DNA from: a virus
Lineage: Duplodnaviria > Heunggongvirae > Uroviricota > Caudoviricetes
Direction: 5' to 3' (one strand)
Length of the DNA: 13,650 nt
IMG/VR virus record: IMGVR_UViG_3300029490_000278
Span: 1 to 13,650 of that record
The translations under genes and the position numbers were made by a program. A model generated the notes under the pieces. It saw only the letters and a program-made list of their open reading frames with translations. It was not told the origin of the DNA and did no database searches. Positions 1-13,650 of this stretch are shown piece after piece (position 1 is the stretch's first letter; every line of letters begins with the position of its first letter).

Positions 1-1053
1 TTATTTCCCCACCAGCTCGTTTATCTCTTTCACTGTCTGGTTAAACCGCTCTGACTCAAGCTCAACACCTAAGGCCCGACGCCCCAGCGCCATTGCTGCT
101 TTTATTGTGGAACCGGATCCCATAAAAAAATCAGCAACCAGATCACCAGGTCGACTACTGGCATTGATTATTTGCCTGAGCATATCCGCCGGTTTCTCAC
201 ACGGATGTTTACCCGGGTAGAACTGAACGGGTTTATGCATCCAGACATCGGTATAAGGCACGGAGACTGATACGGAGAAATAGCGCCGGAGAGATTTAAA
301 CTCATCCAGCAATTCAGAATATTTGCGATTCAGTGAATCATAAGACGCCGCCAGCTGGTGGTGTGGTTGTTCCAGTTGTTGTTCCTGAAACTTCTCTGCC
401 GCTATACGGGAAAACAGTGCCTGTAACTTCCGATAGTCAGCCTCATTCGGCAACTGCCACTGACTGGCACCAAACCAGTGGGAAACCATATTTTTCTTAC
501 CTGTGGCTTCGGCAATTTGTTTTGCCGTTATACCCAGTTCGGCACGAGCATCCCTGAAATACGATATCAGCGGTGCCATTATGTGCTGTTTGAGTTCCCT
601 TTCTTTTGCTGCATAGCCGTCACTTTTGCCGCGATATGGCCCCTGGTAATGTTCAGCAAACAGAACGCGCTCTGTGGCAGGAAAATATGCGCGCAGACTT
701 TCTTTATTACACCCATTCCAACGTCCGGACGGCTTCGCCCAGATGATATGGTTAAGCACGTTGAAACGTTCACGCATCATGATCTCAATATCAGATGCCA
801 GGCGATGCCCACAGAACAGGTAAAGGCTTCCGGCAGGTTTTAACACCCGCCAGAACTGGGCCAGACAGTGGTCCAGCCACTTAAGGTAATCTTCGTCCCC
901 TTTCCACTGATTGTCCCAGCCGTTGGGTTTCACCTTGAAGTACGGCGGATCGGTAACAATCAGGTCAATGGAATCATCAGGCAGGGACTGAATAAAATGC
1001 AGGCAATCAGCGTTGATTAAATCAACACTGTTTATTTTTACAGTATTTTTCAT
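1..1053 (-). CDS. DNA methyltransferase, amino-MTase type (N6-adenine or N4-cytosine), beta-class motif order
   Basis: 350-aa ORF. Motif IV DPPY near the N-terminus (LIVTDPPYF) and motif I FxGxG near the C-terminus (DFFMGSGST). ATG at 1051-1053; stop TAA is complement of bases 1-3, so the gene is complete within the window. No clear SD. Confidence 0.85.
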   Translation of the reverse strand: MKNTVKINSVDLINADCLHFIQSLPDDSIDLIVTDPPYFKVKPNGWDNQWKGDEDYLKWLDHCLAQFWRVLKPAGSLYLFCGHRLASDIEIMMRERFNVLNHIIWAKPSGRWNGCNKESLRAYFPATERVLFAEHYQGPYRGKSDGYAAKERELKQHIMAPLISYFRDARAELGITAKQIAEATGKKNMVSHWFGASQWQLPNEADYRKLQALFSRIAAEKFQEQQLEQPHHQLAASYDSLNRKYSELLDEFKSLRRYFSVSVSVPYTDVWMHKPVQFYPGKHPCEKPADMLRQIINASSRPGDLVADFFMGSGSTIKAAMALGRRALGVELESERFNQTVKEINELVGK

Positions 1054-1203
1054 GGATCAGTAAGCGTAACTCTGGTAGGCTCACTCTGCTTTTGCGCTAA
1101 AGCAGTGGGCCGTGGTTCGCTTGTGACCAGTAAGCATGAGCGAATGGCTGGCAGGTGCTACCAACACCCACCAGCCGCCCATTTTCACAGCAGGAAACCG
1201 CCA

Positions 1204-1658: not shown

Positions 1659-3437
1659 GTGAGTGAAATCATAAAGTTAAAAGGGCTAATGAATACAAAT
1701 GCTATTGAGCCGTTCATTCGCCATATACGGTTTCCGTATTTTAAAAATCTTGAAGAATATAGCACTATACATTTTCACTATCCTATTACTGCATTAGTTG
1801 GTCAAAATGGAACCAATAAAAGCTCAGTATTACGTGCATTATATGGTTCTCCAAATAATTATTCCTTAGGAAATCTTTGGTTTTCAACTGATCTAGACGA
1901 GATTAAAGATGGTGGTCGTTCTAGATTTATTTATGGATACTATGATTCCGCATCTAAAGATGTTGTTGAAGTAATAAAAACAAGGATTGTAGACAAGGAG
2001 GATCCTGATTTATGGGAAACTTCGAGACCTCTAACTAAAGATGGTATGAAAAAAATACCAACAGATATTATTTCGCCAAATCAGCAAAAATCACGCTGGA
2101 AACAGATAGACAAAATTGTCACATATATTGATTTTAGAGCTTCGATCAGTGCATTCGATAAATTCTTTTATCATTCGGACTTTGATCTTTATCCAAAGAA
2201 AAATCACCTGAGAAAAAGAAGCCATCTTCTTAAAGAGATAATAGATAAAGGCCTAACATCATACAAGCCCTTTAAAGGTAAAAAAGAAAGGTTGTATAAG
2301 AATGAATTACTTTCTCAAGAGAAGGTAGAAATCATCAGCGATATACTTGGTAGACCTTACAAAACAATTAGACTTATTGAGCATGCCTTATTTACAAACA
2401 ATAAGGCTTCAACCGTTATTTTAGAGTCTCATAGTCTCAACTACTCCGAGGCTTTTGCAGGAAGTGGGGAGTTTGCAGTAACTATTCTCGTAAATCAAAT
2501 TGTTAACGCGCCAACAGCATCATTAATTCTTTTAGATGAACCCGAAGTCTCACTTCATCCAGCAGCACAGTTTAAATTGATGTCTTTTCTAAATAAGATT
2601 TGCTTAAAAAACAAACATCAAATTGTTATTTCAACACACTCATCATCTATAGTTAGCCAACTACCTAAGGAAGCCATAAAACTTTTTAATCTTAATTCAA
2701 ACTCAGGGAAAGTTAGTATAGTTGAAAACGTTAGCCCTGAGGAAGCTTTCTTTACGCTTGGAGACCGACTATCAAAAAAAACTATCTTTGTAGAAGATAA
2801 ACTGGCTAAAAAATTCGTTGAGAAGGCTTTAAAATCAGGAGGTCCTGCCCTAGCCAATACATTTGATGTTATATATTGCCCAGCTGGTGCAAGCACATTA
2901 TTAGGTAATATGATTGTCTCATTATTTTTATCAAGAGTTGATAATGCGGTATTTTTATTGGATGGTGATCAGAAGACAAGCCATGATTTCATTACATCAG
3001 CCTTAATACCAAGCAGTGAAGATAATTCTTTAAATGAAAAAATAAAAAATATTCTTGGGTGTGAAATTAAAATACCAACTGATGGGCATGGTGGAACTCC
3101 AAATAAACAGCAGAAGATTCAACTTCAGCGTGATTTCATTGATTTTTCATATAATTATGTAGGGTATTTACCTATCATTAATCCAGAAACTTTTTTGATT
3201 GACAATCTTCCGGCTTTTTACTCCGATATGATTAAAGATTTAAACTTATCAAAACTATCACCAAAATCAATAATTGCAGAAATATGTAAAAGAGACATAG
3301 AAAATAACGTTATAACTTCTGATGATATTTTCGCAACACAAATCAGGATACTAACCCGAATACCTGAGAATCATGTCGCATTTTCTGAAACGAGAGAAAT
3401 GCTGAAATTTTTCCTTGAACATGGTAAGATAAGATAA
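1659..3437 (+). CDS. OLD-family nuclease: N-terminal ABC-type ATPase plus C-terminal TOPRIM domain
   Basis: 592-aa ORF. Walker A GQNGTNKS (res 48-55), signature-like AGSGE, Walker B LILLDEPEVSLHP (D293/E294), H-loop STHS, TOPRIM glutamate in TIFVEDK (E379) and DxD in FLLDGDQ (D434/D436). Start is GTG at 1659; an in-frame ATG at 1689 is the alternative. Visibly AT-rich relative to flanks. Confidence 0.8.
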   Translation: MSEIIKLKGLMNTNAIEPFIRHIRFPYFKNLEEYSTIHFHYPITALVGQNGTNKSSVLRALYGSPNNYSLGNLWFSTDLDEIKDGGRSRFIYGYYDSASKDVVEVIKTRIVDKEDPDLWETSRPLTKDGMKKIPTDIISPNQQKSRWKQIDKIVTYIDFRASISAFDKFFYHSDFDLYPKKNHLRKRSHLLKEIIDKGLTSYKPFKGKKERLYKNELLSQEKVEIISDILGRPYKTIRLIEHALFTNNKASTVILESHSLNYSEAFAGSGEFAVTILVNQIVNAPTASLILLDEPEVSLHPAAQFKLMSFLNKICLKNKHQIVISTHSSSIVSQLPKEAIKLFNLNSNSGKVSIVENVSPEEAFFTLGDRLSKKTIFVEDKLAKKFVEKALKSGGPALANTFDVIYCPAGASTLLGNMIVSLFLSRVDNAVFLLDGDQKTSHDFITSALIPSSEDNSLNEKIKNILGCEIKIPTDGHGGTPNKQQKIQLQRDFIDFSYNYVGYLPIINPETFLIDNLPAFYSDMIKDLNLSKLSPKSIIAEICKRDIENNVITSDDIFATQIRILTRIPENHVAFSETREMLKFFLEHGKIR

Positions 3438-3463
3438 ATTTTAGATTATTATAGAGACAGATC

Positions 3464-4498
3464 ATGAAGAAAAAAATCAAAGTTTTTGACTTCTTTTCAG
3501 GATGCGGGGGAACAAGCAAAGGCCTTAAAGAGGCTGGGTGCGAAATTTTCTTCGGTCTCGATTATGATTATGACTCTGGTCAAACCTTTCAGGCAAATAA
3601 TCCTGATGCTATATTTTTTAATGAGGATATACGCTCCGTTAAGTTAAATGATTTATTTCAGCTTGTAAAAAAAGCGAAGCAAGACTCACATGTTTTGTTT
3701 TGTGGTTGTGCTCCATGTCAACCGTTCTCAAGGCAAAATAAAAATAAAAGCAAAGAAGATCCTCGAAGAGGATTATTAAACGAATTTGGTCGTTTTATCG
3801 AGTACTATTGTCCTGATTATGTACTGATAGAAAATGTTCCAGGATTACAAAAAGTTGATATTAACGATGGACCATTGCATGATTTTATAACTCTTCTGAA
3901 AAAGAAAGATTATAATTTAGCTTATGGTGTGATTCCCGCTTTATGGTACGGAGTGCCTCAAACCAGAGAGCGTTTTGTTCTTATGGCCTCACTTCATTCC
4001 CCAATCCATCTACCAGAGCGCACGCATAATGGCGAAGATATCCCATTTGCGACGGTAAGAGATTGGATCGGAAATATACCACCAATTGAGGCAGGTGAAT
4101 CACATCCTACATTACGAGATCATGTTAGTGCAAAACTCTCTGCTTTAAATCTTAAAAGAATTAAAGCAACGCCAGAGGGTAAAGGTCGAGAGTTTTGGCC
4201 TAAAGAGTTGTTACTTGAATGTCATAAAAACCATACAGGTCACAGCGATGTATATGGCCGATTAGCATGGGATAAACCTGCTAGTGGATTAACTACAAGA
4301 TGCATTAGTTACTCTAACGGAAGATTTGGCCATCCTGAGCAACACCGGGCAATTTCTGTTCGCGAGGCTGCACTGCTACAAACATTTCCATTGGATTATA
4401 TATTCATCGGTTCAATGCTTTCTAAAGCTAAACAAATTGGTAATGCAGTCCCACCTAAAATGGCGGAGTCTATAGGGCATGTTTTTATGAATATTTAG
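3464..4498 (+). CDS. DNA (cytosine-5)-methyltransferase, Dcm-type
   Basis: 344-aa ORF with the full C5-MTase motif set: I FDFFSGCGG, IV GCAPCQPFS (catalytic Cys), VI IENVPGL, VIII QTRERF, X QIGNAVPP. Starts 26 nt after the OLD-like stop on the same strand; AT-rich. Confidence 0.9.
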   Translation: MKKKIKVFDFFSGCGGTSKGLKEAGCEIFFGLDYDYDSGQTFQANNPDAIFFNEDIRSVKLNDLFQLVKKAKQDSHVLFCGCAPCQPFSRQNKNKSKEDPRRGLLNEFGRFIEYYCPDYVLIENVPGLQKVDINDGPLHDFITLLKKKDYNLAYGVIPALWYGVPQTRERFVLMASLHSPIHLPERTHNGEDIPFATVRDWIGNIPPIEAGESHPTLRDHVSAKLSALNLKRIKATPEGKGREFWPKELLLECHKNHTGHSDVYGRLAWDKPASGLTTRCISYSNGRFGHPEQHRAISVREAALLQTFPLDYIFIGSMLSKAKQIGNAVPPKMAESIGHVFMNI

Positions 4499-4521: not shown

Positions 4522-4863
4522 CTATAACATTGACATTACTCCCTCAACAAATCCCAAGGCGGATTGCAAATCCTTCCGGATAGTCCCGTCCGAACATTTC
4601 CGCTTCTTTGCAATTGTGCGGAGTGAAATACCTATAACAAAGTGAACAATGAGCAGCTCAAACTCATCTGGTTTATACTTTCGTAACCGAGCCACACAAC
4701 TGTCTACCATAATACCTTCGTCATCATCACACTGAATCCGGGACTTTTTGCCATGAGGTAAAAGCCCCTTAAAGCCAGCGGCTACCTGTTGCCAATCCAC
4801 ACCACTGTTTTCTGCCGCAGCCCATGCCCCCCAGCGGTCCAAAACTTCATACATATCACGCAT
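4522..4863 (-). CDS. Small Q-like late-gene antiterminator (tentative)
   Basis: 113 aa from the ATG at 4863, with SD GGAGAAA 5-6 nt upstream. Family assignment is from recalled similarity to small Q-type antiterminators and from position after the nin-like genes; no motif is diagnostic. Confidence 0.4.
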   Translation of the reverse strand: MRDMYEVLDRWGAWAAAENSGVDWQQVAAGFKGLLPHGKKSRIQCDDDEGIMVDSCVARLRKYKPDEFELLIVHFVIGISLRTIAKKRKCSDGTIRKDLQSALGFVEGVMSML

Positions 4864-4880
4864 CAACTTTCTCCACAAAA

Positions 4881-5876
4881 TCAGGCCAGCACGCCTATTG
4901 CCAGCGCACGATCGATAAAACGAAATATCAGCTCCAACTGGGAGCCATACTTCTCTTCAAATGCCACGGTATCCGCATGTAGTTCGTCGTGATGCTTTCT
5001 GCACAAAGGCAACACAAAGAGGTCATGCGCTTTTGTACCCATTCCCCCCTGACCGTGGCCTATCAGGTGGTGGGGATCATCAGCAGGCTTTCCACAACAT
5101 GCACACGGCTGTGTCTTAACCCAGCGCGTGTACTTTTCATTAACCCAGCGGCGACGTTTTGGGCGTAACATAAAAGACTCCGGCGACTTCGGATCCACTT
5201 TCAGCGCCAGCACTTTTTTCGCTTTATCCTGGATGATGCTGGTGGCAGGAACCGAAGGCACAAGGTCACTTTCCCGGGTAACAGACGGCACAACAGGCTT
5301 CGGTAATCTAAGTGCCTTACGGGCTGCACTTTCCGGTAAGGCATCCGCCAGGTCATTACGAATCAGCCACCAGCACAGTTCCGGCATTGTCACAACGTGA
5401 CTGTCATCAAAACCGAGATCCCGACGCACAACAGACAACACCCAGCGGGCACAGTTATCCGTTGCCATTGATTCCAGCCGTTCTGTGAACTGATCGCGCA
5501 GCTGGTTATCGCAGTGCCAGCACAGACGGATTGCGCCCGGAGCGTGTCGCATTGTGGTCATGTTCTCGCTGTGCCAGTCGGAATGAGGCCACTGGCAGCC
5601 TTTTTCACGAAGTAACCAGCTTTCAAGACATTCCACGCCACCAGCACGACGGATCACTGCCTCATTGCGGAACACGCCCCGAACGGCAGGATCATCCGCC
5701 AGCGGTTGTGATGCCGCGGGAACGGCACCACTGGCGAAAGATGAATAACGCTCCGGCTCAGGCTCCAGCAGGACACGCCCCTGCATAAATAGGGGCATCA
5801 GCTCTGAACCTGGTCTGAACAATACGATCCCCATACGCGGGGCAATTTCAGGGGTCAGTAGTGCTCTCACGGTCAC
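4881..5876 (-). CDS. Phage nin-region protein with C-terminal Cys/His (HNH-like or zinc-binding) motif, DUF968-like (tentative)
   Basis: 331-aa ORF. C-terminus carries CACCGKPADDPHHLIGHG...LPLCRKHHDELH. The GTG at 5876 overlaps the upstream TGA stop (GTGA), suggesting translational coupling; exact start is ambiguous. Confidence 0.6.
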   Translation of the reverse strand: MTVRALLTPEIAPRMGIVLFRPGSELMPLFMQGRVLLEPEPERYSSFASGAVPAASQPLADDPAVRGVFRNEAVIRRAGGVECLESWLLREKGCQWPHSDWHSENMTTMRHAPGAIRLCWHCDNQLRDQFTERLESMATDNCARWVLSVVRRDLGFDDSHVVTMPELCWWLIRNDLADALPESAARKALRLPKPVVPSVTRESDLVPSVPATSIIQDKAKKVLALKVDPKSPESFMLRPKRRRWVNEKYTRWVKTQPCACCGKPADDPHHLIGHGQGGMGTKAHDLFVLPLCRKHHDELHADTVAFEEKYGSQLELIFRFIDRALAIGVLA

Positions 5877-5877
5877 C

Positions 5878-6687
5878 TCAATGTACGGTATCGAGCAGCT
5901 TTAACAGCTCAGGGAATCGGGATTCGAAGAAATGCGGCTGCGTCTCGCGCGGATTTGCGGGACTGGTGATGTTCTTGCCGAACATGCAGCCTTTCGCTGT
6001 CAGTGACCAGAATTTTTTGATGTTGTTAATCGCGGTACGGCTGTATCGTTCGCGCTGCTCGACGATCCCCAGCTTCACCATCTGGTGATATGCCTGATTA
6101 GCTGTCAGGCGGATACCATACTGCTTCAGCAATGCACTCAGTGACAGCGTGGGGCGGCTTGAGCCATCAGGCGCGTCAGCAGGAGCATCAATGGCATAGC
6201 GCGGTGCCAGATTCGGTAAGCCAACAGCCTCCTGGAGTTTCTGACAGGCACCAAGCACTGAAGAGTTAGACAGGTTTAATTCCCGGCGCATAAAGTCCAG
6301 CAGAATCACACCAGCCTGCATCTTGTCAGCAGCCTGTCCGGATAATTTTTCCGGTGCGCTGGTTACCATGTCGAAAGTACGGATCACCTTCAGATGGAAT
6401 GACGGGCTGATCCACATTGCATAGGCATACACCAGTTCTTTGCAGACATACGTCCCCTGGTTATTTCCGCCATTAATGACGCTAACTGGTTGATTTTGTT
6501 CCAGAGGCGGAATTCCACCCTCGGTGAAAAGTTGTTCAATCAATTCACAGGTTTGCTTATTGGAGAGCCAGTATTTCGGGCGGTTTTTTTGTTCTCCCCC
6601 GGCTGCCCTGTGCAGATCGTTCAGGCTGTAACGCCCATAAGCATCACGACGAACTTCAATACCATCAATGACCATCAGATTATTCAT
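5878..6687 (-). CDS. KilA-N domain protein (antirepressor-like)
   Basis: 269 aa from the ATG at 6687, with SD GAGGAG about 8 nt upstream. N-terminal region (MVIDGIEVRRDAYGRYSLNDLHRAAG...YWLSNKQTCELIEQL...GTYVCKELVYAYAMWISPSFHLKVIRTFD) fits the KilA-N fold pattern. Confidence 0.65.
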   Translation of the reverse strand: MNNLMVIDGIEVRRDAYGRYSLNDLHRAAGGEQKNRPKYWLSNKQTCELIEQLFTEGGIPPLEQNQPVSVINGGNNQGTYVCKELVYAYAMWISPSFHLKVIRTFDMVTSAPEKLSGQAADKMQAGVILLDFMRRELNLSNSSVLGACQKLQEAVGLPNLAPRYAIDAPADAPDGSSRPTLSLSALLKQYGIRLTANQAYHQMVKLGIVEQRERYSRTAINNIKKFWSLTAKGCMFGKNITSPANPRETQPHFFESRFPELLKLLDTVH

Positions 6688-6706
6688 ACTTCGTTTCTCC
6701 TCTTGA

Positions 6707-6952
6707 TCAGGCGGCTGCACCCGCCGGTTTCTCGTACTTACTGATAGTGATCTCGACCTTCCCTTCCGGGATAACCGGTCCCCACTCCACCAACATTCTT
6801 TTCACTTGGCTGTCGTCTTCCCACACACCCGCGTGGGTCAGGGCGTCAAACAGCGCCTTGTTATAGTTGTCCAGATCGCGGATCCGGTTACGGGTCTTCG
6901 CGTTTTTCGGTGTACGTGCTGACGGACGGTGATAAGCGCAGGGAAAGCTCAT
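6707..6952 (-). CDS. rusA: RusA-like Holliday-junction resolvase, conserved C-terminal core with short or atypical N-terminus
   Basis: C-terminal 55 residues (RIRDLDNYNKALFDALTHAGVWEDDSQV...GKVEITISKYEK) match the RusA catalytic region, including the DLDN and DD acidic residues. The ORF can be extended to an ATG at 7066 (119 aa), but that N-terminus overlaps the O-like gene in another frame and lacks the usual RusA N-terminal motif. Confidence 0.5.
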   Translation of the reverse strand: MSFPCAYHRPSARTPKNAKTRNRIRDLDNYNKALFDALTHAGVWEDDSQVKRMLVEWGPVIPEGKVEITISKYEKPAGAAA

Positions 6953-7769
6953 CCCATTTTTCCCGCAACTTCGACGGGCTGAGCACGTTACGGCACCAGA
7001 ACGGATCGCGGCTGACGCGGCTGTACATCTCGCAGATTTGTTTGTGAGTACGACCATCCTGTACACACATCAGGCGAATTTCGTTTGCCCAGGCTGTCCA
7101 GTTCGGTTCTTTGGGACGAACCACCTCGCCGTCACATTCGGCGGCTTGCTCGTACAGGGCGATGATTTTTTTCCAGAGCCACTGTGCGCAGGTCAAATCA
7201 TCCTGCGTTCCCCACTGGCGCTTTTTAGGGCTGAATACAACCGCATCAGGATGGCGAGTTAAAAAATCCTGTTCATCCGTCTGCGTGTCCGGTTGCGAAG
7301 CGTCCGGACGAGAAGGTTTTTTATCTGACGGATCATGTTTTGATTTTACTGACGGATCCCCGCCAGATTCTGACGGGTGAAAACCCGCTTTTTTGCCAGA
7401 TTTCGACGCATCAAATTTTGACGGGTCAGATTTTGATGCGTCAGATTTTGACGGGTCAGAATCTGACAGTTGAGAAAATGCCGCTGCCTGAAGCTTCGCA
7501 ACGTTAAGCTGATAAACATTCGACGCATTGCGGTTACCCTGGCGACGCGCCTTACGCGTTAACCAGCCTTCTGCTTCCAGCCGTGCGATAGCCGTTCTGA
7601 CGGTACTCATCCCCGCGCCAATCTGGCGGGCAATGGTTTCAATTGATGGCCAGCACACACCTTCGTCATTACTGAAATCAGCCAAGCGGGCCATAATTGC
7701 CACGCTGGATAATTTCATGCCTGACGCTGCGCAACCATCCCATACATAGCCGGTTAATTTAGTGCTCAT
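6888..7769 (-). CDS. Replication initiator, O-like (N-terminal winged-helix DNA-binding domain, repetitive acidic/Ser-rich linker)
   Basis: 293-aa ORF, ATG at 7769 with SD AGAGGT 6 nt upstream. N-terminal HTH-like region (SVAIMARLADFSNDEGVCWPSIETIARQIGAGMSTVRTAIARLEAEGWL). Linker (SDSDPSKSDASKSDPSKFDASKSG) is encoded by tandem 15-bp repeats. Sits in the O position of a lambdoid early-right operon. Confidence 0.6.
   Translation of the reverse strand: MSTKLTGYVWDGCAASGMKLSSVAIMARLADFSNDEGVCWPSIETIARQIGAGMSTVRTAIARLEAEGWLTRKARRQGNRNASNVYQLNVAKLQAAAFSQLSDSDPSKSDASKSDPSKFDASKSGKKAGFHPSESGGDPSVKSKHDPSDKKPSRPDASQPDTQTDEQDFLTRHPDAVVFSPKKRQWGTQDDLTCAQWLWKKIIALYEQAAECDGEVVRPKEPNWTAWANEIRLMCVQDGRTHKQICEMYSRVSRDPFWCRNVLSPSKLREKWDELSLRLSPSVSTYTEKREDP
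7399..7458. repeat. Four tandem 15-bp iteron-like repeats (consensus GATTTTGACGGGTCA) inside the O-like gene; candidate origin
   Basis: Units at 7399-7413, 7414-7428, 7429-7443 and 7444-7458, with degenerate copies at 7321-7335, 7366-7380 and 7459-7469. Each unit has internal dyad symmetry (TGAC..GTCA). Confidence 0.6.
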
Positions 7770-7778
7770 GACCGACCT

Positions 7779-8117
7779 CTATTTCCCTGAATTTACGACG
7801 AAACTGTTCGAGCGGGCTGAAGCACTCATGCTCATAGCCTTCACGGAGGTAGATAACCCGTTGTGTTTCCGGCTCCCAACGAATGACTCTGACGGGCACT
7901 CCGTAGTGATCTTTGAACCAGCGGTTAACTTGTCGCAAAGGACTGCCTCCTTCTGCCGGTTGAAATCCCCCACAGCCCACTCTGCAAAGCTGTGGGTTAC
8001 AATTTCCCTGTCACCTGGTACATTCACTGCATAGCAATACTCCACCTTCGCTTTTCCACCCGGTACAGGAAGCGCAATCAGTTGCGAGCGACGGTAGTGT
8101 GTTGTTAAACTGTTCAT
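7779..8117 (-). CDS. Hypothetical early protein (112 aa), possibly frameshifted
   Basis: ATG at 8117 overlaps the upstream stop (ATGA). A -1-frame ORF (7759-7980) continues from a C5/G5 homopolymer at 7967-7971 and would end just before the O-like start. Confidence 0.45.
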
Positions 8118-8677
8118 GCGTTAGTTTCTCCACAGTCACGACACGCCACGGCGCCCGGAGCTGCACACTCGCGGGCGTCATTACTTTCTGAAATGCAAAA
8201 AATTTTGTAGACCAGTGCTGCATGCTCCTGCAGCTTCGAAATTGAGAGGTACAACTCGTCGTTAATTGCTGTCTTCTCATGCGGTTCCACTACACCGTCT
8301 TCAATTGCTGAACGAATCTGTTTTGAATAACTGCCGATCTGTTCAATGACCTCCAGCAGGCGTTGGTTGATATCGGCGTTGTCCACATCCTCGACGTCAG
8401 GAAGAGACACAAAGACGCCATTTGCAGACTGCGCCACAGCATCAGCAATGAAGTGAGTGCCACCAGCACGCTGTAAAACCATTGCCCATCCCAGCGGGAA
8501 AATCTGATCGCCATCTGCACGAAGGCGGTTGAATAAAGCGTTTTCTGTTACATCGAGCCAGTCAGCCGCTTCAGCGTAACCACCCGGCAACGCCGCGATA
8601 GTTTTTCTGACAGCTTTCACGTACCACTCAGGCTGTTTTTCTATTTTCCAGTGATGCTTACCCACGATTAGCCTCAT
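8114..8677 (-). CDS. Early regulatory protein in the cII position (function tentative)
   Basis: 187-aa ORF directly downstream of the cro-like gene, ATG at 8677. Assignment is by synteny with lambdoid early-right operons; no diagnostic motif. Confidence 0.5.
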
Positions 8678-8708: not shown

Positions 8709-8909
8709 CTAATCTTTCGGATAGATATCCGGTCTTAAGTCAGATTTCGTAATTGCACCTGACGTGCATTGCTCAAGTTTTTTAGCCAGCACAAAACTGG
8801 CTTTTTTATAGCCATTGAAAACCAGCCGTAAGTAGCCAGGTGTTGAGCCAACTTTTCCGGCCAACTCGCCCTGCTGTTCTTTGGTTAAAGAGTCCCAATA
8901 CGCTTTCAT
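8709..8909 (-). CDS. Cro-like small HTH repressor
   Basis: 66 aa from the ATG at 8909, with SD GGAGGT 9 nt upstream. HTH-like sequence (LTKEQQGELAGKVGSTPGYLRLVFNG), divergent from the CI-like gene. The longer listed ORF (to 9212) runs antisense through the repressor gene and is rejected. Confidence 0.7.
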   Translation of the reverse strand: MKAYWDSLTKEQQGELAGKVGSTPGYLRLVFNGYKKASFVLAKKLEQCTSGAITKSDLRPDIYPKD

Positions 8910-8999: not shown

Positions 9000-9674
9000 A
9001 TGAAAACAATCCATGACATCCGGCGGTCTAACGCCAGAAAACTGAGAGATGGTGTTGGCGGGAATTCTTCCTTTGCCACTATGATTGATCGCGAGCCAAC
9101 CCAGACCAGCAGGTTTATGGGAGATGGTGCTACTAAAAATATCGGTGACAGCATGGCACGACACATCGAAAAATGTTTCGACCTGCCTGTCGGATGGCTC
9201 GATCAAGAACACCAGACAACGAACATCACAAAAAAACCTGATGTTTCAATCACTAATAAACAAATCACATTAGTCCCTGTCATATCATGGGTACAGGCCG
9301 GAGCATGGAAAGAAGTTGGATATTCTGAGGTTGATTTGAGCACAGCAGAAACGTATCCCTGCCCTGTACCCTGTGGGGAAATGACTTATATCTTGCGGGT
9401 GATAGGTGATTCAATGATTGATGAGTACCGCCCGGGAGACATGATTTTTGTCGATCCTGAAGTACCTGCCTGCCACGGTGACGACGTTATTGCATTGATG
9501 CACGATACAGGTGAAACCACCTTCAAAAGGTTGATAGAAGATGGGACACAGCGTTATCTCAAAGCGTTAAACCCAAACTGGCCTGAGCCTTACATTAAGA
9601 TCAACGGTAATTGCTCTATAATTGGTACAGTGATTTTCTCAGGAAAACCAAGAAGATACAAAATCAAAGCCTAA
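9000..9674 (+). CDS. CI-like phage repressor with LexA-type S24 peptidase domain
   Basis: 224-aa ORF with an N-terminal XRE-type HTH and a C-terminal S24 domain (Ser in VIGDSM, Lys in TFKRL). No SD before the ATG at 9000. Confidence 0.85.
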   Translation: MKTIHDIRRSNARKLRDGVGGNSSFATMIDREPTQTSRFMGDGATKNIGDSMARHIEKCFDLPVGWLDQEHQTTNITKKPDVSITNKQITLVPVISWVQAGAWKEVGYSEVDLSTAETYPCPVPCGEMTYILRVIGDSMIDEYRPGDMIFVDPEVPACHGDDVIALMHDTGETTFKRLIEDGTQRYLKALNPNWPEPYIKINGNCSIIGTVIFSGKPRRYKIKA

Positions 9675-9686
9675 TCAATGTTTATG

Positions 9687-9709
9687 AACCTGCTTCGGCA
9701 GGTTTTTTT
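9687..9709 (+). terminator. Rho-independent terminator downstream of the repressor gene
   Basis: 7-bp stem AACCTGC/GCAGGTT with a UUCG tetraloop, followed by a 7-T run (9703-9709), 13 nt after the repressor stop. Confidence 0.8.
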
Positions 9710-9713
9710 ATAC

Positions 9714-9758
9714 TTGACAATGTACCTTTGAGATACATAATGTACCCAAGCGAAACAA
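9714..9758 (+). promoter_or_regulatory. pL-like promoter with embedded operator
   Basis: -35 TTGACA (9714-9719), 16-nt spacer, -10 CATAAT (9736-9741). Operator-like TGTAC-N7-aTACA at 9721-9737 sits between the -35 and -10; a weaker copy (TGTAC at 9742-9746) follows. Confidence 0.55.
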
Positions 9759-9908
9759 CGAACAGGCAGGACGCCCACGAAGTAGCCGCCTGGGGCATAT
9801 GAAGTCCAGGATGATTCGTTAGCAACAAAAAAGCGCCCTACAGGACGCTTAGCTCTTTAACAATCTGGTCCCCATCAACAAGTAACTGATAACTTGAGGA
9901 GATGTGAA

Positions 9909-10115
9909 ATGCACAAAACAGAACCCAAAATCGTCGCGCCTGGCTACACAGATGAGGAAATTTATGAGTGGATGACAAAGAAGCTGGCAGCTATAAACCA
10001 GCTTCGTGAAGTGCTGTCTTATCGACAGGAAACAATAGACTCCTTAAAAAAACTGGATCAGGAAATCACGGTTTTATCACAGGATGTTACTTTAGATATT
10101 GTGCAGACAAATTAG
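9909..10115 (+). CDS. Small hypothetical early protein (68 aa, predicted helical)
   Basis: ATG at 9909 with SD GAGGAG 7 nt upstream; first gene after the pL-like promoter. No recognisable domain. Confidence 0.4.
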   Translation: MHKTEPKIVAPGYTDEEIYEWMTKKLAAINQLREVLSYRQETIDSLKKLDQEITVLSQDVTLDIVQTN

Positions 10116-10521
10116 GATCCCATTCATTTTCGTCAAAATCATCAAAATGATGAATTTGTGATCTCCAGTCTCGATAATCTAAAAATTTCTGGGCGGTTAC
10201 GCTTATTTTATCAAGTGTGAGTTCATCCTGAATTGAAAGAAGAAGTTCATCAAATTTCATCTCATTAATCTGTTTTGGCATCCAGTGATGCTTCATCAGA
10301 ATAAGGTGAACCAGAGCCTTTTTCCCATTCAACTGATTATAGGGAGTGCCGAATTTCTTCCGGTGCTCATGTAAGACAAGGTCCAAAAGAGTAAGTAATG
10401 TTGCCCTTGATTCAACTTTGCTTATTTCGACTGATGACACTACCCCACTGATTTCAATGCCCCGATACTTTCCAACATTTTCACAGTGGGATTTGTACAG
10501 CGTATAGATATTACCGGACAT
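10087..10521 (-). CDS. AT-rich hypothetical protein (144 aa) on the opposite strand of the early-left operon; candidate moron
   Basis: ATG at 10521 with SD AAGGAA about 6 nt upstream. Visibly lower GC than its neighbours. 3' end overlaps the convergent 9909-10115 gene by 29 nt. No motif recognised. Confidence 0.5.
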   Translation of the reverse strand: MSGNIYTLYKSHCENVGKYRGIEISGVVSSVEISKVESRATLLTLLDLVLHEHRKKFGTPYNQLNGKKALVHLILMKHHWMPKQINEMKFDELLLSIQDELTLDKISVTAQKFLDYRDWRSQIHHFDDFDENEWDPNLSAQYLK

Positions 10522-10807
10522 TTCTTTTCCTTTTGCGTTGTTGGGGATAACCAGATTAACCGAATCCTTGTTGTTGGGGAATAACTAGGTCCACCTCGCC
10601 TGATGTGGCTAAAAGCAGGCACATAACAGCTAAGTATTTTCAACCAGAGAGAATCCTTAGCGTTGTGGTGAATGCGGCTCAGCGCACGCGGGTTAAGGTT
10701 GAGGCTGACAGTCGACCTTCTGTGGATACCCACCCGCCTGGTGTGCAACCTTCGCCAGGCACCGGGAGGCACCCGGCACCACAACTTTATGCTGTGTGTA
10801 GTCTTGG

Positions 10808-10852
10808 CGGTACCAGCTTGTACCCTTGCTTCCGGCTGGTACCGTCCTTTTT
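10808..10852 (+). terminator. Candidate intrinsic terminator or structured RNA 3' end
   Basis: Perfect 10-bp stem CGGTACCAGC (10808-10817) / GCTGGTACCG (10835-10844) with a 17-nt loop, followed by TCC then TTTTT (10848-10852). Confidence 0.4.
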
Positions 10853-10941
10853 ACAAAACAGAGAAGAGCATCACCGGACGACGGGCTCATAACCCAATCC
10901 ATCCGGGCGGCTGCCACCGCAGGTGTTCTTCTCTGTTTTGT
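10853..10941. repeat. Perfect 15-bp inverted repeat enclosing a 59-nt GC-rich segment
   Basis: ACAAAACAGAGAAGA (10853-10867) and its exact reverse complement TCTTCTCTGTTTTGT (10927-10941). An 11-bp direct repeat ATCACCGGACG also occurs at 10870-10880 and 10996-11006. Confidence 0.6.
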
Positions 10942-12260: not shown

Positions 12261-12610
12261 TGGAGCCATACAGCCTCACACTCGATGAGGCCTGTCATTT
12301 TCTCAAGATATCCAGACCGACTGCCATTAACTGGATACGCACAGGGCGTCTTCAGGCAACACGCAAAGATCCCACTAAGAATAAATCTCCTTACCTCACA
12401 ACACGACAAGCCTGCATTGCGGCTCTTCAGTCTCCGCTGCATACTGTCCAGGTGAGCGCGGGTGATGGCATAACAGAGGAAAGAAAATGTCACTCTTCCG
12501 CAGAGGTGAAATATGGTACGCCAGTTTCACATTGCCGAACGGTAAAAGATTTAAACAGTCTCTTGGAACAAAGGACAAAAGGCAGGCGACAGAACTCCAT
12601 GACAAGCTAA
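12260..12610 (+). CDS. xis: Excisionase-family HTH DNA-binding protein
   Basis: HTH region [26 protein letters not shown] immediately upstream of the integrase. Start taken as the ATG at 12260; the ORF track starts the frame at 12176. The frame runs to 12610, overlapping int by 124 nt. Confidence 0.55.
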
Positions 12611-13650
12611 AGGCTGAAGCATGGCGGGTCAGCAAACTTGGTGAAATACCTGATATAACGTTCGAGGAAGCTTGTGTCAGGTGGCTTGAAGAGAAAGCAC
12701 ATAAAAAATCACTGGACGATGACAAAAGCCGGATCGGATTCTGGCTTCAACATTTCGCAGGAATGCAACTAAGAGACATTACTGAATCAAAAATTTATTC
12801 AGCAATGCAGAAAATGACGAACCGGCGTCATGAGGAAAACTGGAAACTCAGGGCAGAAGCATGCAGAAAAAAAGGGAAACCTGTTCCAGAATACACGCCA
12901 AAACCAGCGTCCGTTGCAACGAAGGCTACGCATCTTTCATTTATAAAGGCCCTACTAAGAGCCGCAGAGCGTGAATGGAAAATGCTGGATAAGGCACCAA
13001 TTATTAAAGTGCCTCAACCAAAGAATAAACGGATCCGCTGGCTGGAGCCCCATGAAGCACAAAGGCTGATTGATGAATGTCCGGAGCCATTAAAGTCTGT
13101 TGTTGAATTTGCACTGGCAACAGGCTTAAGACGCTCGAACATCATCAACCTTGAATGGCAACAAATAGATATGCAGCGCCGGGTGGCATGGATAAACCCG
13201 GAAGAGAGTAAATCAAACCGCGCAATTGGCGTTGCGCTGAATGATACTGCATGTCGCGTATTGAAAAAACAAATCGGGAATCATCACCGTTGGGTATTTG
13301 TGTACAAGGAAAGCTGTACCAAACCAGACGGAACGAAAGCGCCAACAGTAAGGAAGATGCGGTATGACGCAAACACAGCCTGGAAAGCGGCGCTGAGACG
13401 GGCTGGTATTGATGATTTCAGATTTCACGACTTGAGACACACCTGGGCAAGTTGGCTGGTTCAAGCCGGAGTCCCGTTGTCAGTGTTACAGGAAATGGGA
13501 GGCTGGGAGTCTATCGAAATGGTTCGTCGATATGCTCACCTTGCACCTAATCACCTTACCGAACACGCACGGCAAATAGACTCGATCCTGAACCCATCGG
13601 TCCCAAATTTGTCCCAGTCAAAAAATAAGGAAGGTACTAATGATGTGTAA
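12487..13650 (+). CDS. int: Tyrosine recombinase, phage integrase
   Basis: 387-aa ORF with SD GAGGAA 6 nt upstream. Catalytic signature is present: R in [18 protein letters not shown] box, terminal RRYAHL with the Tyr nucleophile. From memory it resembles the e14 IntE family (unverified). Confidence 0.95.

Follow-up and report, generated by a model that had tools for sequence, protein, structure and literature searches.

A conserved antisense gene of the ECs1072 family converges with a YdfC-family gene in the early-left operon of an SfIV/SfV-like prophage

The window analysed here (the whole 13,650-nt stretch of Caudoviricetes DNA from IMG/VR record IMGVR_UViG_3300029490_000278) spans the immunity and early regions of a lambdoid prophage similar to SfIV and SfV. 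At 10087-10521, on the minus strand, it carries a gene of the ECs1072 family of phage-associated proteins that is antisense to the early-left operon. This gene and the small YdfC-family gene that converges with it appear to form an orientation-locked cassette, which recurs in four operon contexts and is new here; also new is a confidently predicted fold without a solved relative. The family itself is already catalogued (NF033230 and PHROG 5286), and both entries list its function as unknown. We tentatively read the larger gene as coding for an effector expressed in the lysogen, probably for exclusion or abortive infection, that lytic transcription and the YdfC-like protein would switch off; this reading is possible, though somewhat more apt to be wrong than right.

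Conservation of the antisense gene

The gene comprises 144 codons from an ATG start, and its product has a predicted molecular weight of 16.9 kDa and a predicted pI of 6.4, and is predicted to be soluble and all-alpha. The minus-strand letters directly 5' of the gene read ...GCAAAAGGAAAAGAA-ATG. All the genes around it, from cI (9000) through int (13650), lie on the plus strand, and its guanine-plus-cytosine (GC) content is 37.7% (37.2% at third codon positions), against 44.7% in cI, 46.3% in the HD hydrolase gene, 46.5% in int and 52.6% in the adjoining intergenic region. The original prediction, made from the letters and a list of open reading frames (ORFs), had described a 144-amino-acid (aa) ORF with a good Shine-Dalgarno sequence, opposite in orientation to its plus-strand neighbours, visibly lower in GC and overlapping the 3' end of a plus-strand gene by 29 nt, and it was right on all these points (ATG start; AAGGA 6 nt before the ATG; 37.7% against 44-53% GC; overlap at 10087-10115).

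The 17-bp operator TGTACC-N6-RNACA occurs exactly in two copies at the early-left promoter (PL) and otherwise only in the cro-cI intergenic region (8916 and 8966). With one mismatch at most, nine matches were found where 1.2 would be expected, and in 200 shuffles the count always stayed below nine. By sequence, 9714-9757 is the early-left promoter and operator region (PL/OL), and the antisense gene therefore lies inside the early-left operon, where the original prediction had placed it.

Against the NCBIfam model NF033230 ("ECs1072 family phage-associated protein"), whose curated cut-off is 70 bits, the protein scored 157.8 bits, with residues 4-144 aligned to positions 2-142 of the 142 in the model, and it matched PHROG 5286 with an E value of 1.5e-90 over positions 1-144 of 144. 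It is 100% identical to gp36 of SfIV and to products of the Escherichia phages vB_EcoS-569R4, 689R6 and Kati; 421 of the 5426 complete E. coli genomes contain the gene with an identity of at least 95%, and at least 1000 contigs carry the exact 144-aa protein. An exhaustive profile search gave 76 representative family clusters (E <=1e-3), nearly all of 143-157 aa, and all family loci examined are phage or prophage. A scan of genome contigs for the family found 3 loci only, and a Pantoea-type family query had no match in the viral contigs. The ratio of non-synonymous to synonymous substitution (dN/dS) was 0.22 between the window allele and a 72%-identical allele and 0.25 between two Yersinia/Pectobacterium alleles, while all changes between the window gene and that of SfIV are synonymous (proportion of synonymous differences, pS, 0.045; zero non-synonymous differences); as judged from these alleles, the family gene is under purifying selection.

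The family score, the cluster representatives of the same length, the dN/dS ratios and the lack of non-synonymous changes with respect to SfIV argue that 10087-10521 is a genuine gene and not a chance frame. A spurious ORF, lying by chance antisense to real PL transcripts, would fit the failure to find a clear promoter and the lack of annotation in some phage records, such as ST64B. It is excluded by the conservation data (157.8 bits with the family hidden Markov model, 76 same-length clusters, dN/dS of 0.2) and by a confident compact fold, which leave it next to no probability. The original prediction had staked itself on conservation in related prophages, and the ORF is conserved, both across the 76 clusters and in the 421 E. 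coli genomes.

Conserved residues in the family are L50, R54, L64, G66, A69 and H72, and W134 is the sole invariant one. AlphaFold, with an alignment of 47 sequences, gave a confident compact all-alpha model (predicted local distance difference test, pLDDT, 94.7; predicted template modelling score, pTM, 0.89). Scans of the 144-aa protein against Pfam, PADLOC and NCBIfam returned nothing except its own family model NF033230, Pfam and PADLOC scans of 47 aligned relatives gave no consistent family match, and a sequence-profile search of the PDB had no match to E = 10. The H...HD...D motif together with a significant fold match, as in HD/HDOD phosphohydrolases, was not found in the protein. One family alignment was too diverse for pattern scanning. 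The statement in the original prediction that no domain is recognised thus holds for Pfam, but not for the catalogued family, to which the protein belongs at full length as the identical twin of SfIV gp36; of the checks it had proposed, remote homology gave no PDB profile match and structure prediction gave the all-alpha model.

A YdfC-family partner in four operon contexts

The YdfC-like gene is the first gene of the PL operon, and its product is about 40% identical to the annotated ydfC of Qin-like phages. By an iterated profile search of all six-frame ORFs of 115 sequences (14,134 ORFs), a YdfC-like ORF was found convergent with and adjacent to the family gene at 107 of 108 loci, corresponding to 14 of the 15 clusters at 80% identity. 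A sixteenth lineage, Sakai, also has the partner (E 6.6e-9, counting only residues beyond the overlap), which brings the count to 15 of 16 lineages. Elsewhere among the 14,134 ORFs the partner profile had no matches, bar fragments of the same gene and two Qin-like phages with ydfC alone. The original prediction had treated the overlapped "upstream gene" as a mere neighbour, a view that does not stand, since a YdfC-family ORF accompanies the family gene in these 15 lineages and in four contexts. The pair does not qualify as a Type II toxin-antitoxin system, as its two genes are convergent rather than arranged in a co-directional bicistronic operon, and a toxin-antitoxin domain was not found.

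In every distant family member examined (20-60% identity) the gene is antisense to the surrounding operon, and the flank-strand tally agrees. The first context is the lambdoid early-left operon by the repressor, as in the window, and is found in Yersinia, Pectobacterium, Proteus, Morganella, Serratia and E. albertii. In the second, found in Pantoea, the gene lies in a P2-like early operon between cox-proximal genes and DUF2732/A. In the third, found in ST64B and Klebsiella phages, the gene opposes the late operon from a position between Q and holin. The fourth is the early-right (PR) operon of Sakai Sp4, where ECs1072 lies between the cII-like ECs_1071 and the O-like ECs_1073. Intact unannotated family ORFs were recognised in ST64B (L024, AY055382) at 2345-2779 (+), convergent with the YdfC-like sb50, and in Klebsiella phage KPP5665-2 (L025) at 2318-2791 (+), convergent with the YdfC-like GP45; in this late-operon context the partner starts directly after a terminator-like hairpin, and its expression should therefore need Q. 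ECs1072 is now ECs_5703, the pair lies at 14117-14852 of L115 (E. coli O157:H7 Sakai, NC_002695.2), and its partner is an unannotated YdfC-like ORF at 14117-14677 (+), convergent with ECs1072. Common to the four contexts is a small gene that would be on with the lytic operon and a larger gene that runs against the operon as its own unit.

The partner overlaps the family gene by 22-196 nt in one relative frame throughout, except in two lineages (L012 and L019), in which the nearest partner ORF is about 400-500 nt off. The codons for the W-D-P of the family (W134) often form the palindrome TGGGATCC(C)A, from which the partner reads (W/P/Q)-D-P on the other strand in the same register; at 10112-10121 of the window, the TAG stop of the partner occupies the position where longer partners read the W/P/Q of (x)-D-P. 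This register points to dual coding or to a constraint at the DNA/RNA level. Co-divergence of the two proteins gave a Spearman coefficient of 0.24 (p = 0.16), with one sequence mis-trimmed.

Leader, terminators and junctions of the cassette

The tandem duplication in the leader of the antisense gene takes in the Shine-Dalgarno sequence and has a 33-nt period. A position weight matrix scan of the leader found only a weak sigma-70-like TTCCCC-17-TAATCT. The conserved string GTGCCTG..CCACC..GGTGG-TATCTT was rejected as promoter plus operator of the gene, because the window lacks its extended -10 and because its hairpin is shared with the backbone of SfV and SfII, both without the gene. A motif of about 20 nt, AATCTGGT..CCCCA.CAACAA, is common to the 5' leaders of both convergent genes as an inverted repeat (9862-9881/10538-10557). 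The inverted repeat and the tandem duplication are confined to the E. coli lineage, so the shared repeat may be due to chance.

Two terminators are predicted on the minus strand beyond the stop of the antisense gene (9980-10005 and 9831-9850), which would supply the own terminator expected of a moron. For the first, a comparable hairpin with a T-run occurs 50-106 nt beyond the stop of the family gene, within the partner coding sequence, in 7 other lineages. The second reads on the minus strand as a clean intrinsic terminator with TTTTTTGTT after it; on the plus strand the same hairpin precedes a boxA-like site, so that the PL leader (9831-9863) presents the hairpin and then GCTCTTTAACAA, which we take to be the rrn-type boxA core and presumably nut-like in role. 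With a boxA-like site in the PL leader and an N-like protein not evident, this suggests a phage group with rrn-like or RNA-based antitermination.

Since the minus-strand terminators end just short of PL, transcripts of the antisense gene would span the entire mRNA of the partner and also the boxA-like site. The convergent unit could be mainly a regulatory device of the lysis-lysogeny switch, whose transcription through the first PL gene and the nut region into PL would stabilise lysogeny or slow early-left expression, with the protein as an auxiliary regulator, and the place of the terminator at 9831-9850 and the position of the cassette always close behind a lytic promoter or terminator would suit such a role. 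It is a distinctly improbable one, as the protein itself is under strong purifying selection, Pfam scans of the protein and its relatives detected no helix-turn-helix or other nucleic-acid-binding domain, and late-operon cassettes could not steer an early decision.

Compared with its relatives, the window has variable content between PL and the downstream backbone. Homology to PhiR29_1 runs to 9868 and restarts at 10537, and the corresponding limits with SfV/SfII are given in Table 1. In the same slot SfV has orf33 (+), SfII a 63-aa antisense gene (SfII_36) and PhiR29_1 a 242-aa antisense gene, so the differing cargo in relatives for which the original prediction had proposed to look does exist; in ST64B nothing is annotated there. 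Pfam and PADLOC gave no assignment for the alternative cargo of the relatives. The PhiR29_1 cargo and the antisense ORF after ydfC in phage 689R5 were rejected as family members (hhalign probability <1%), and the 689R5 "protein" resembles GC-rich non-coding DNA. Because close relatives carry other cargo in the same slot, the region behaves as a moron slot and the gene as probable mobile accessory cargo. Both its composition (37.7% GC against 44-53%) and its absence at the site in SfV, SfII, ST64B and PhiR29_1, which differ from about 9820/9868 to 10537/10591, are those of a moron, and the low GC and the variable slot at about 9821-10590 support a horizontally acquired accessory gene in the early-left operon, as the original prediction had proposed.

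The right junction is marked by a 31-nt element that belongs to the backbone common to phages without the family gene. It also lies upstream of family genes in six other lineages (L005, L007, L010, L012, L019 and L112; 25-35% protein identity), at 2447-2478 of L023 and, in PPompW, ahead of ydfC; it could serve as a module boundary, a processing site or a promoter. The antisense gene may also be a plain lysogenic-conversion moron directed at the host (physiology, stress or virulence), its adjacency to ydfC being a preferred recombination joint without functional link. Low GC in a variable slot, recurrence of the 31-nt element at module boundaries, the growth-phase regulation of ECs1072 in Sakai, a breakpoint inside the partner gene in one lineage (L021) and the occurrence of ydfC alone all agree with this. 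A passive joint fits poorly with a convergent adjacency that keeps the same overlap register in four unrelated contexts at 20-35% protein identity, and we consider the plain moron unlikely.

Proposed function of the cassette

From sequence we infer the timing of expression, the antagonism between the two proteins and the defence function of the following scheme. A two-gene mobile cassette would have inserted about 100 bp downstream of PL in fixed orientation, the antisense gene forming its own unit with its own Shine-Dalgarno sequence and the two predicted terminators. In the lysogen, CI would shut PL, and hence the antisense gene alone would be transcribed and its soluble 17-kDa all-alpha product would build up. 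This product would be an effector of benefit to the prophage, most likely one that hinders superinfecting phages in their lytic growth, through exclusion or abortive infection. Once PL fires upon induction or infection, convergent transcription would collide with the weak antisense promoter, both mRNAs would pair across their 3' ends, and the YdfC-like protein, as the first PL product, would possibly neutralise the effector as a self-immunity factor.

A state-dependent pair would be the most economical reading of a small gene that runs with the lytic operon and a larger gene opposed to it in four contexts. Counted in its favour are the conserved gene, its antisense orientation in every lineage examined, the constant partner, the hairpins and the other antisense cargo of the slot. 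ECs1072 gave a significant array signal in uninduced Sakai, with a log2 change of -2.13, a more than 4-fold fall, on entering stationary phase (PMC2241611). This signal, the SieB-domain gene beside the cassette in the Yersinia prophage L007 and the precedents of BstA/aba and TerI are further hints, and an exclusion or defence role of the gene is plausible.

Several findings weigh against this proposal. A consensus promoter scan of the minus strand found none for the antisense gene, and a conserved extended -10 (TGnTATCTT), present in distant homologues about 40 nt before the ATG, is degraded in the window copy. No solved fold similar to the protein was found, and in PADLOC and Pfam it resembles no known defence protein or Pfam family. 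One lineage (L006) has no partner. The ydfC-like genes of Qin-like phages occur without the family gene, so the adjacency of the pair could be positional. L021 combines the same YdfC N-terminus with a 72%-divergent family allele through a breakpoint inside the partner gene, which argues against tight co-evolution of the pair. The Sakai array signal was obtained for a distant allele that lies in another operon.

The polarity of the pair could also be the reverse, with the YdfC-like protein as a lytic-phase effector (host take-over or toxic) and the ECs1072-type protein as a lysogen-phase antidote, antisense transcription buffering leaky PL, PR, Pe or PR'. Since the family gene is almost never found without its partner and the partner is sometimes found alone, the larger gene would depend on the smaller; the antisense layout suits the repression of leakage, and the YdfC family occurs in operons known for toxic small products, with DicB, DicF and YdfD as neighbours in Qin (PMC5069750). 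However, the same source describes YdfC only as of unknown function and toxicity of it is not reported, the pattern of occurrence equally fits an orphan antidote, and a protein of 145-155 aa in 76 clusters is much machinery to silence a protein of about 70 aa that is already under repressor control. We regard reversed polarity as improbable.

A wider form of the state-dependent proposal, which we put forward as doubtful, is that the cassette reports the lysogeny/lysis state: the 17-kDa abortive-infection or exclusion effector would be made only with the lytic operon silent, YdfC-family proteins would be its cognate inhibitors, and orphan ydfC genes, including that of E. coli K-12 Qin, would be anti-exclusion genes. 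If true, the y-gene ydfC of E. coli K-12 Qin would gain a function and the YdfC family a role, a defence/self-immunity module missed by current defence-finder libraries would be added, and antisense low-GC cargo just behind lytic promoters would become a positional rule for finding more prophage systems. If wrong, the finding is an ordinary, already catalogued hypothetical prophage gene. The allele is present in about 8% of complete E. coli genomes, with relatives in Shigella, Salmonella (ST64B), Klebsiella, Yersinia, Pectobacterium, Proteus and Pantoea prophages and in enterohaemorrhagic E. coli Sakai, and the invariant architecture provides a testable hypothesis of a lysogen-phase effector with a lytic-phase antagonist.

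Other features of the window and its relatives

The coordinates of the features are collected in Table 1. A GC-rich non-coding region that resembles STnc100 lies downstream of the antisense gene in the PL sense and outside the gene itself. It contains a weak DicF-like stretch (19.4 bits, 10793-10847), and a 25-nt inverted repeat (10853-10877/10917-10941) lies by it. Annotation SfIV_34 of SfIV turns part of this structured region into a protein and looks wrong. The small RNA svsR of an SfV-like prophage (PMC12803456) maps to the cI 3' end and is unrelated to the gene at 10087-10521. In the early-right region of SfV (L002, U82619), Rfam recognises at 970-1158 (-) a C4 antisense RNA (82 bits) and isrK (64 bits), neither of which is in the window.

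Between an N6/N4 methylase gene (1-1053, -) and Q, a two-gene island of low GC (29-38%) lies at 1659-4498 (+), antisense to the late direction and in the moron slot downstream of Q. One gene encodes a 592-aa AAA_21/AAA_15 ATPase that matches PADLOC HEC-04 (E 2.9e-34) and also has ATPase-Toprim, PtuA and GajA-like matches, and the other a 344-aa C5 cytosine methyltransferase; the island is a candidate defence system. In the Yersinia prophage L007, the SieB-domain gene lies at 5827-6321, directly behind the cassette, on the same strand as the family gene and antisense to the early-left operon.

Table 1. Positions of the features of the window
Feature	Position	Strand	Remarks
Q	4522-4878	-	
DUF968 and RusA genes		-	
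KilA-N gene	5878-6720	-	
O-like replication gene	6888-7769	-	
cII, CP76-type	8114-8677	-	
cro	about 8709-8909	-	
cI repressor (S24 peptidase)	9000-9674	+	terminator 9686-9705; defines immunity region
PL promoter TTGACA-16-CATAAT	9714-9741	+	near-consensus, directly after cI terminator
PL/OL region	9714-9757	+	OL1 9721-9737, OL2 9741-9757
Variable slot (cassette) versus SfV/SfII	9821-10590		blastn segments; homology ends at about 9820, restarts at 10591
Second, stronger predicted intrinsic terminator, AAGCGTCC-TGTA-GGGCGCTT then TTTTTGTT	9831-9850	-	just short of PL
boxA-like GCTCTTTAACAA	9852-9863	+	PL leader; single exact match in window
YdfC-family small gene	9909-10115	+	PHROG 1744; 68 aa from ATG with GAGGAG Shine-Dalgarno; ORF opens at TTG 9894
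Terminator-like hairpin inside partner coding sequence	9980-10005	-	9-bp stem, -10.7 kcal/mol, tail TCTTTGTCA
Antisense overlap of the two 3' ends, 29 nt	10087-10115		from coordinates
ECs1072-family gene	10087-10521	-	ORF list and translation; NF033230, PHROG 5286, purifying selection, AlphaFold2 model
Shine-Dalgarno AAGGA	10528-10532	-	6 nt before ATG; read from letters
Leader with 33-nt tandem duplication, GTTAT(T)CCCCAACAAC...AAGGA twice	10537-10585	-	direct repeat; copies at 10537-10547 and 10570-10580
31-nt junction element CCACCTCGCCTGATGTGGCTAAAAGCAGGCAC, small hairpin	10591-10621		right junction of cassette with SfV/SfII backbone
STnc100-like structured RNA region	10632-10855	+	Rfam RF02076, 43.4 bits (gathering score 47), E 3.7e-8
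HD hydrolase, DUF551 and xis genes		+	
int, P22-type	12487-13650	+	

Comparison with known systems

The window protein is a full-length member of NF033230/PHROG 5286, with no difference from a family that includes SfIV gp36 and Sakai ECs1072. In lambda and P22, sieB runs in the direction of PL and encodes a membrane protein (PF14163) for superinfection exclusion, and Esc, an in-frame product from within sieB, lets the phage itself escape. The P22 systems have been reviewed (PMC10883804). Like sieB/esc, the gene is prophage-borne, early-left and by the immunity region, and the logic proposed for it (exclusion plus a self-protecting product) is alike; unlike sieB/esc, it runs against PL, encodes a soluble protein of unrelated sequence and would have its escape factor encoded by a separate, convergent gene. 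No PF14163 or other Pfam match and no transmembrane segment was found in the 144-aa protein (maximum Kyte-Doolittle 19-residue window 0.84), and RexAB, with two co-transcribed genes downstream of cI of which one encodes a multi-pass membrane channel, is likewise not indicated, as there was no PADLOC match and the gene is located past PL and is oriented against cI. The parallel to rexAB and sieB drawn in the original prediction is thus one of position, but not of homology, membrane character or PADLOC assignment.

Prophage defence with self-immunity has been described for BstA/aba, in which BstA has about 300 aa and an N-terminal KilA-N domain and the immunity element is a DNA site (PMC8585504), and, with cognate self-immunity, for TerI/anti-TerI in Listeria (bioRxiv 10.1101/2025.02.27.640495). 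The window gene shares with them a small or medium single prophage protein beside the repressor region and, as proposed here, self-immunity in its own lytic cycle. It has no homology to BstA or TerI, neither of which has the convergent overlapping layout, and the defence role in the present case is putative. KilA-N is absent from the 144-aa protein (the KilA-N gene of the window is a separate one), which does not belong to the BstA family.

The dicBF operon of Qin has ydfA-ydfB-ydfC, a long untranslated region with dicF, and then dicB, ydfC being promoter-proximal (PMC5069750). In the window, as in dicBF, an early promoter is followed by a YdfC-family gene and a long structured untranslated region, here STnc100-like and weakly DicF-like. 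Unlike Qin-like phages, which have no ECs1072-type gene after ydfC, the window has one, antisense between the ydfC-like gene and the structured region. Classical morons are represented by bor and lom of lambda and gp15 of HK97. The cassette resembles them in its distinct composition, its absence from close relatives, its predicted own terminator and its place between operon genes, and differs from them in being a two-gene convergent unit whose orientation is fixed relative to the surrounding operon.

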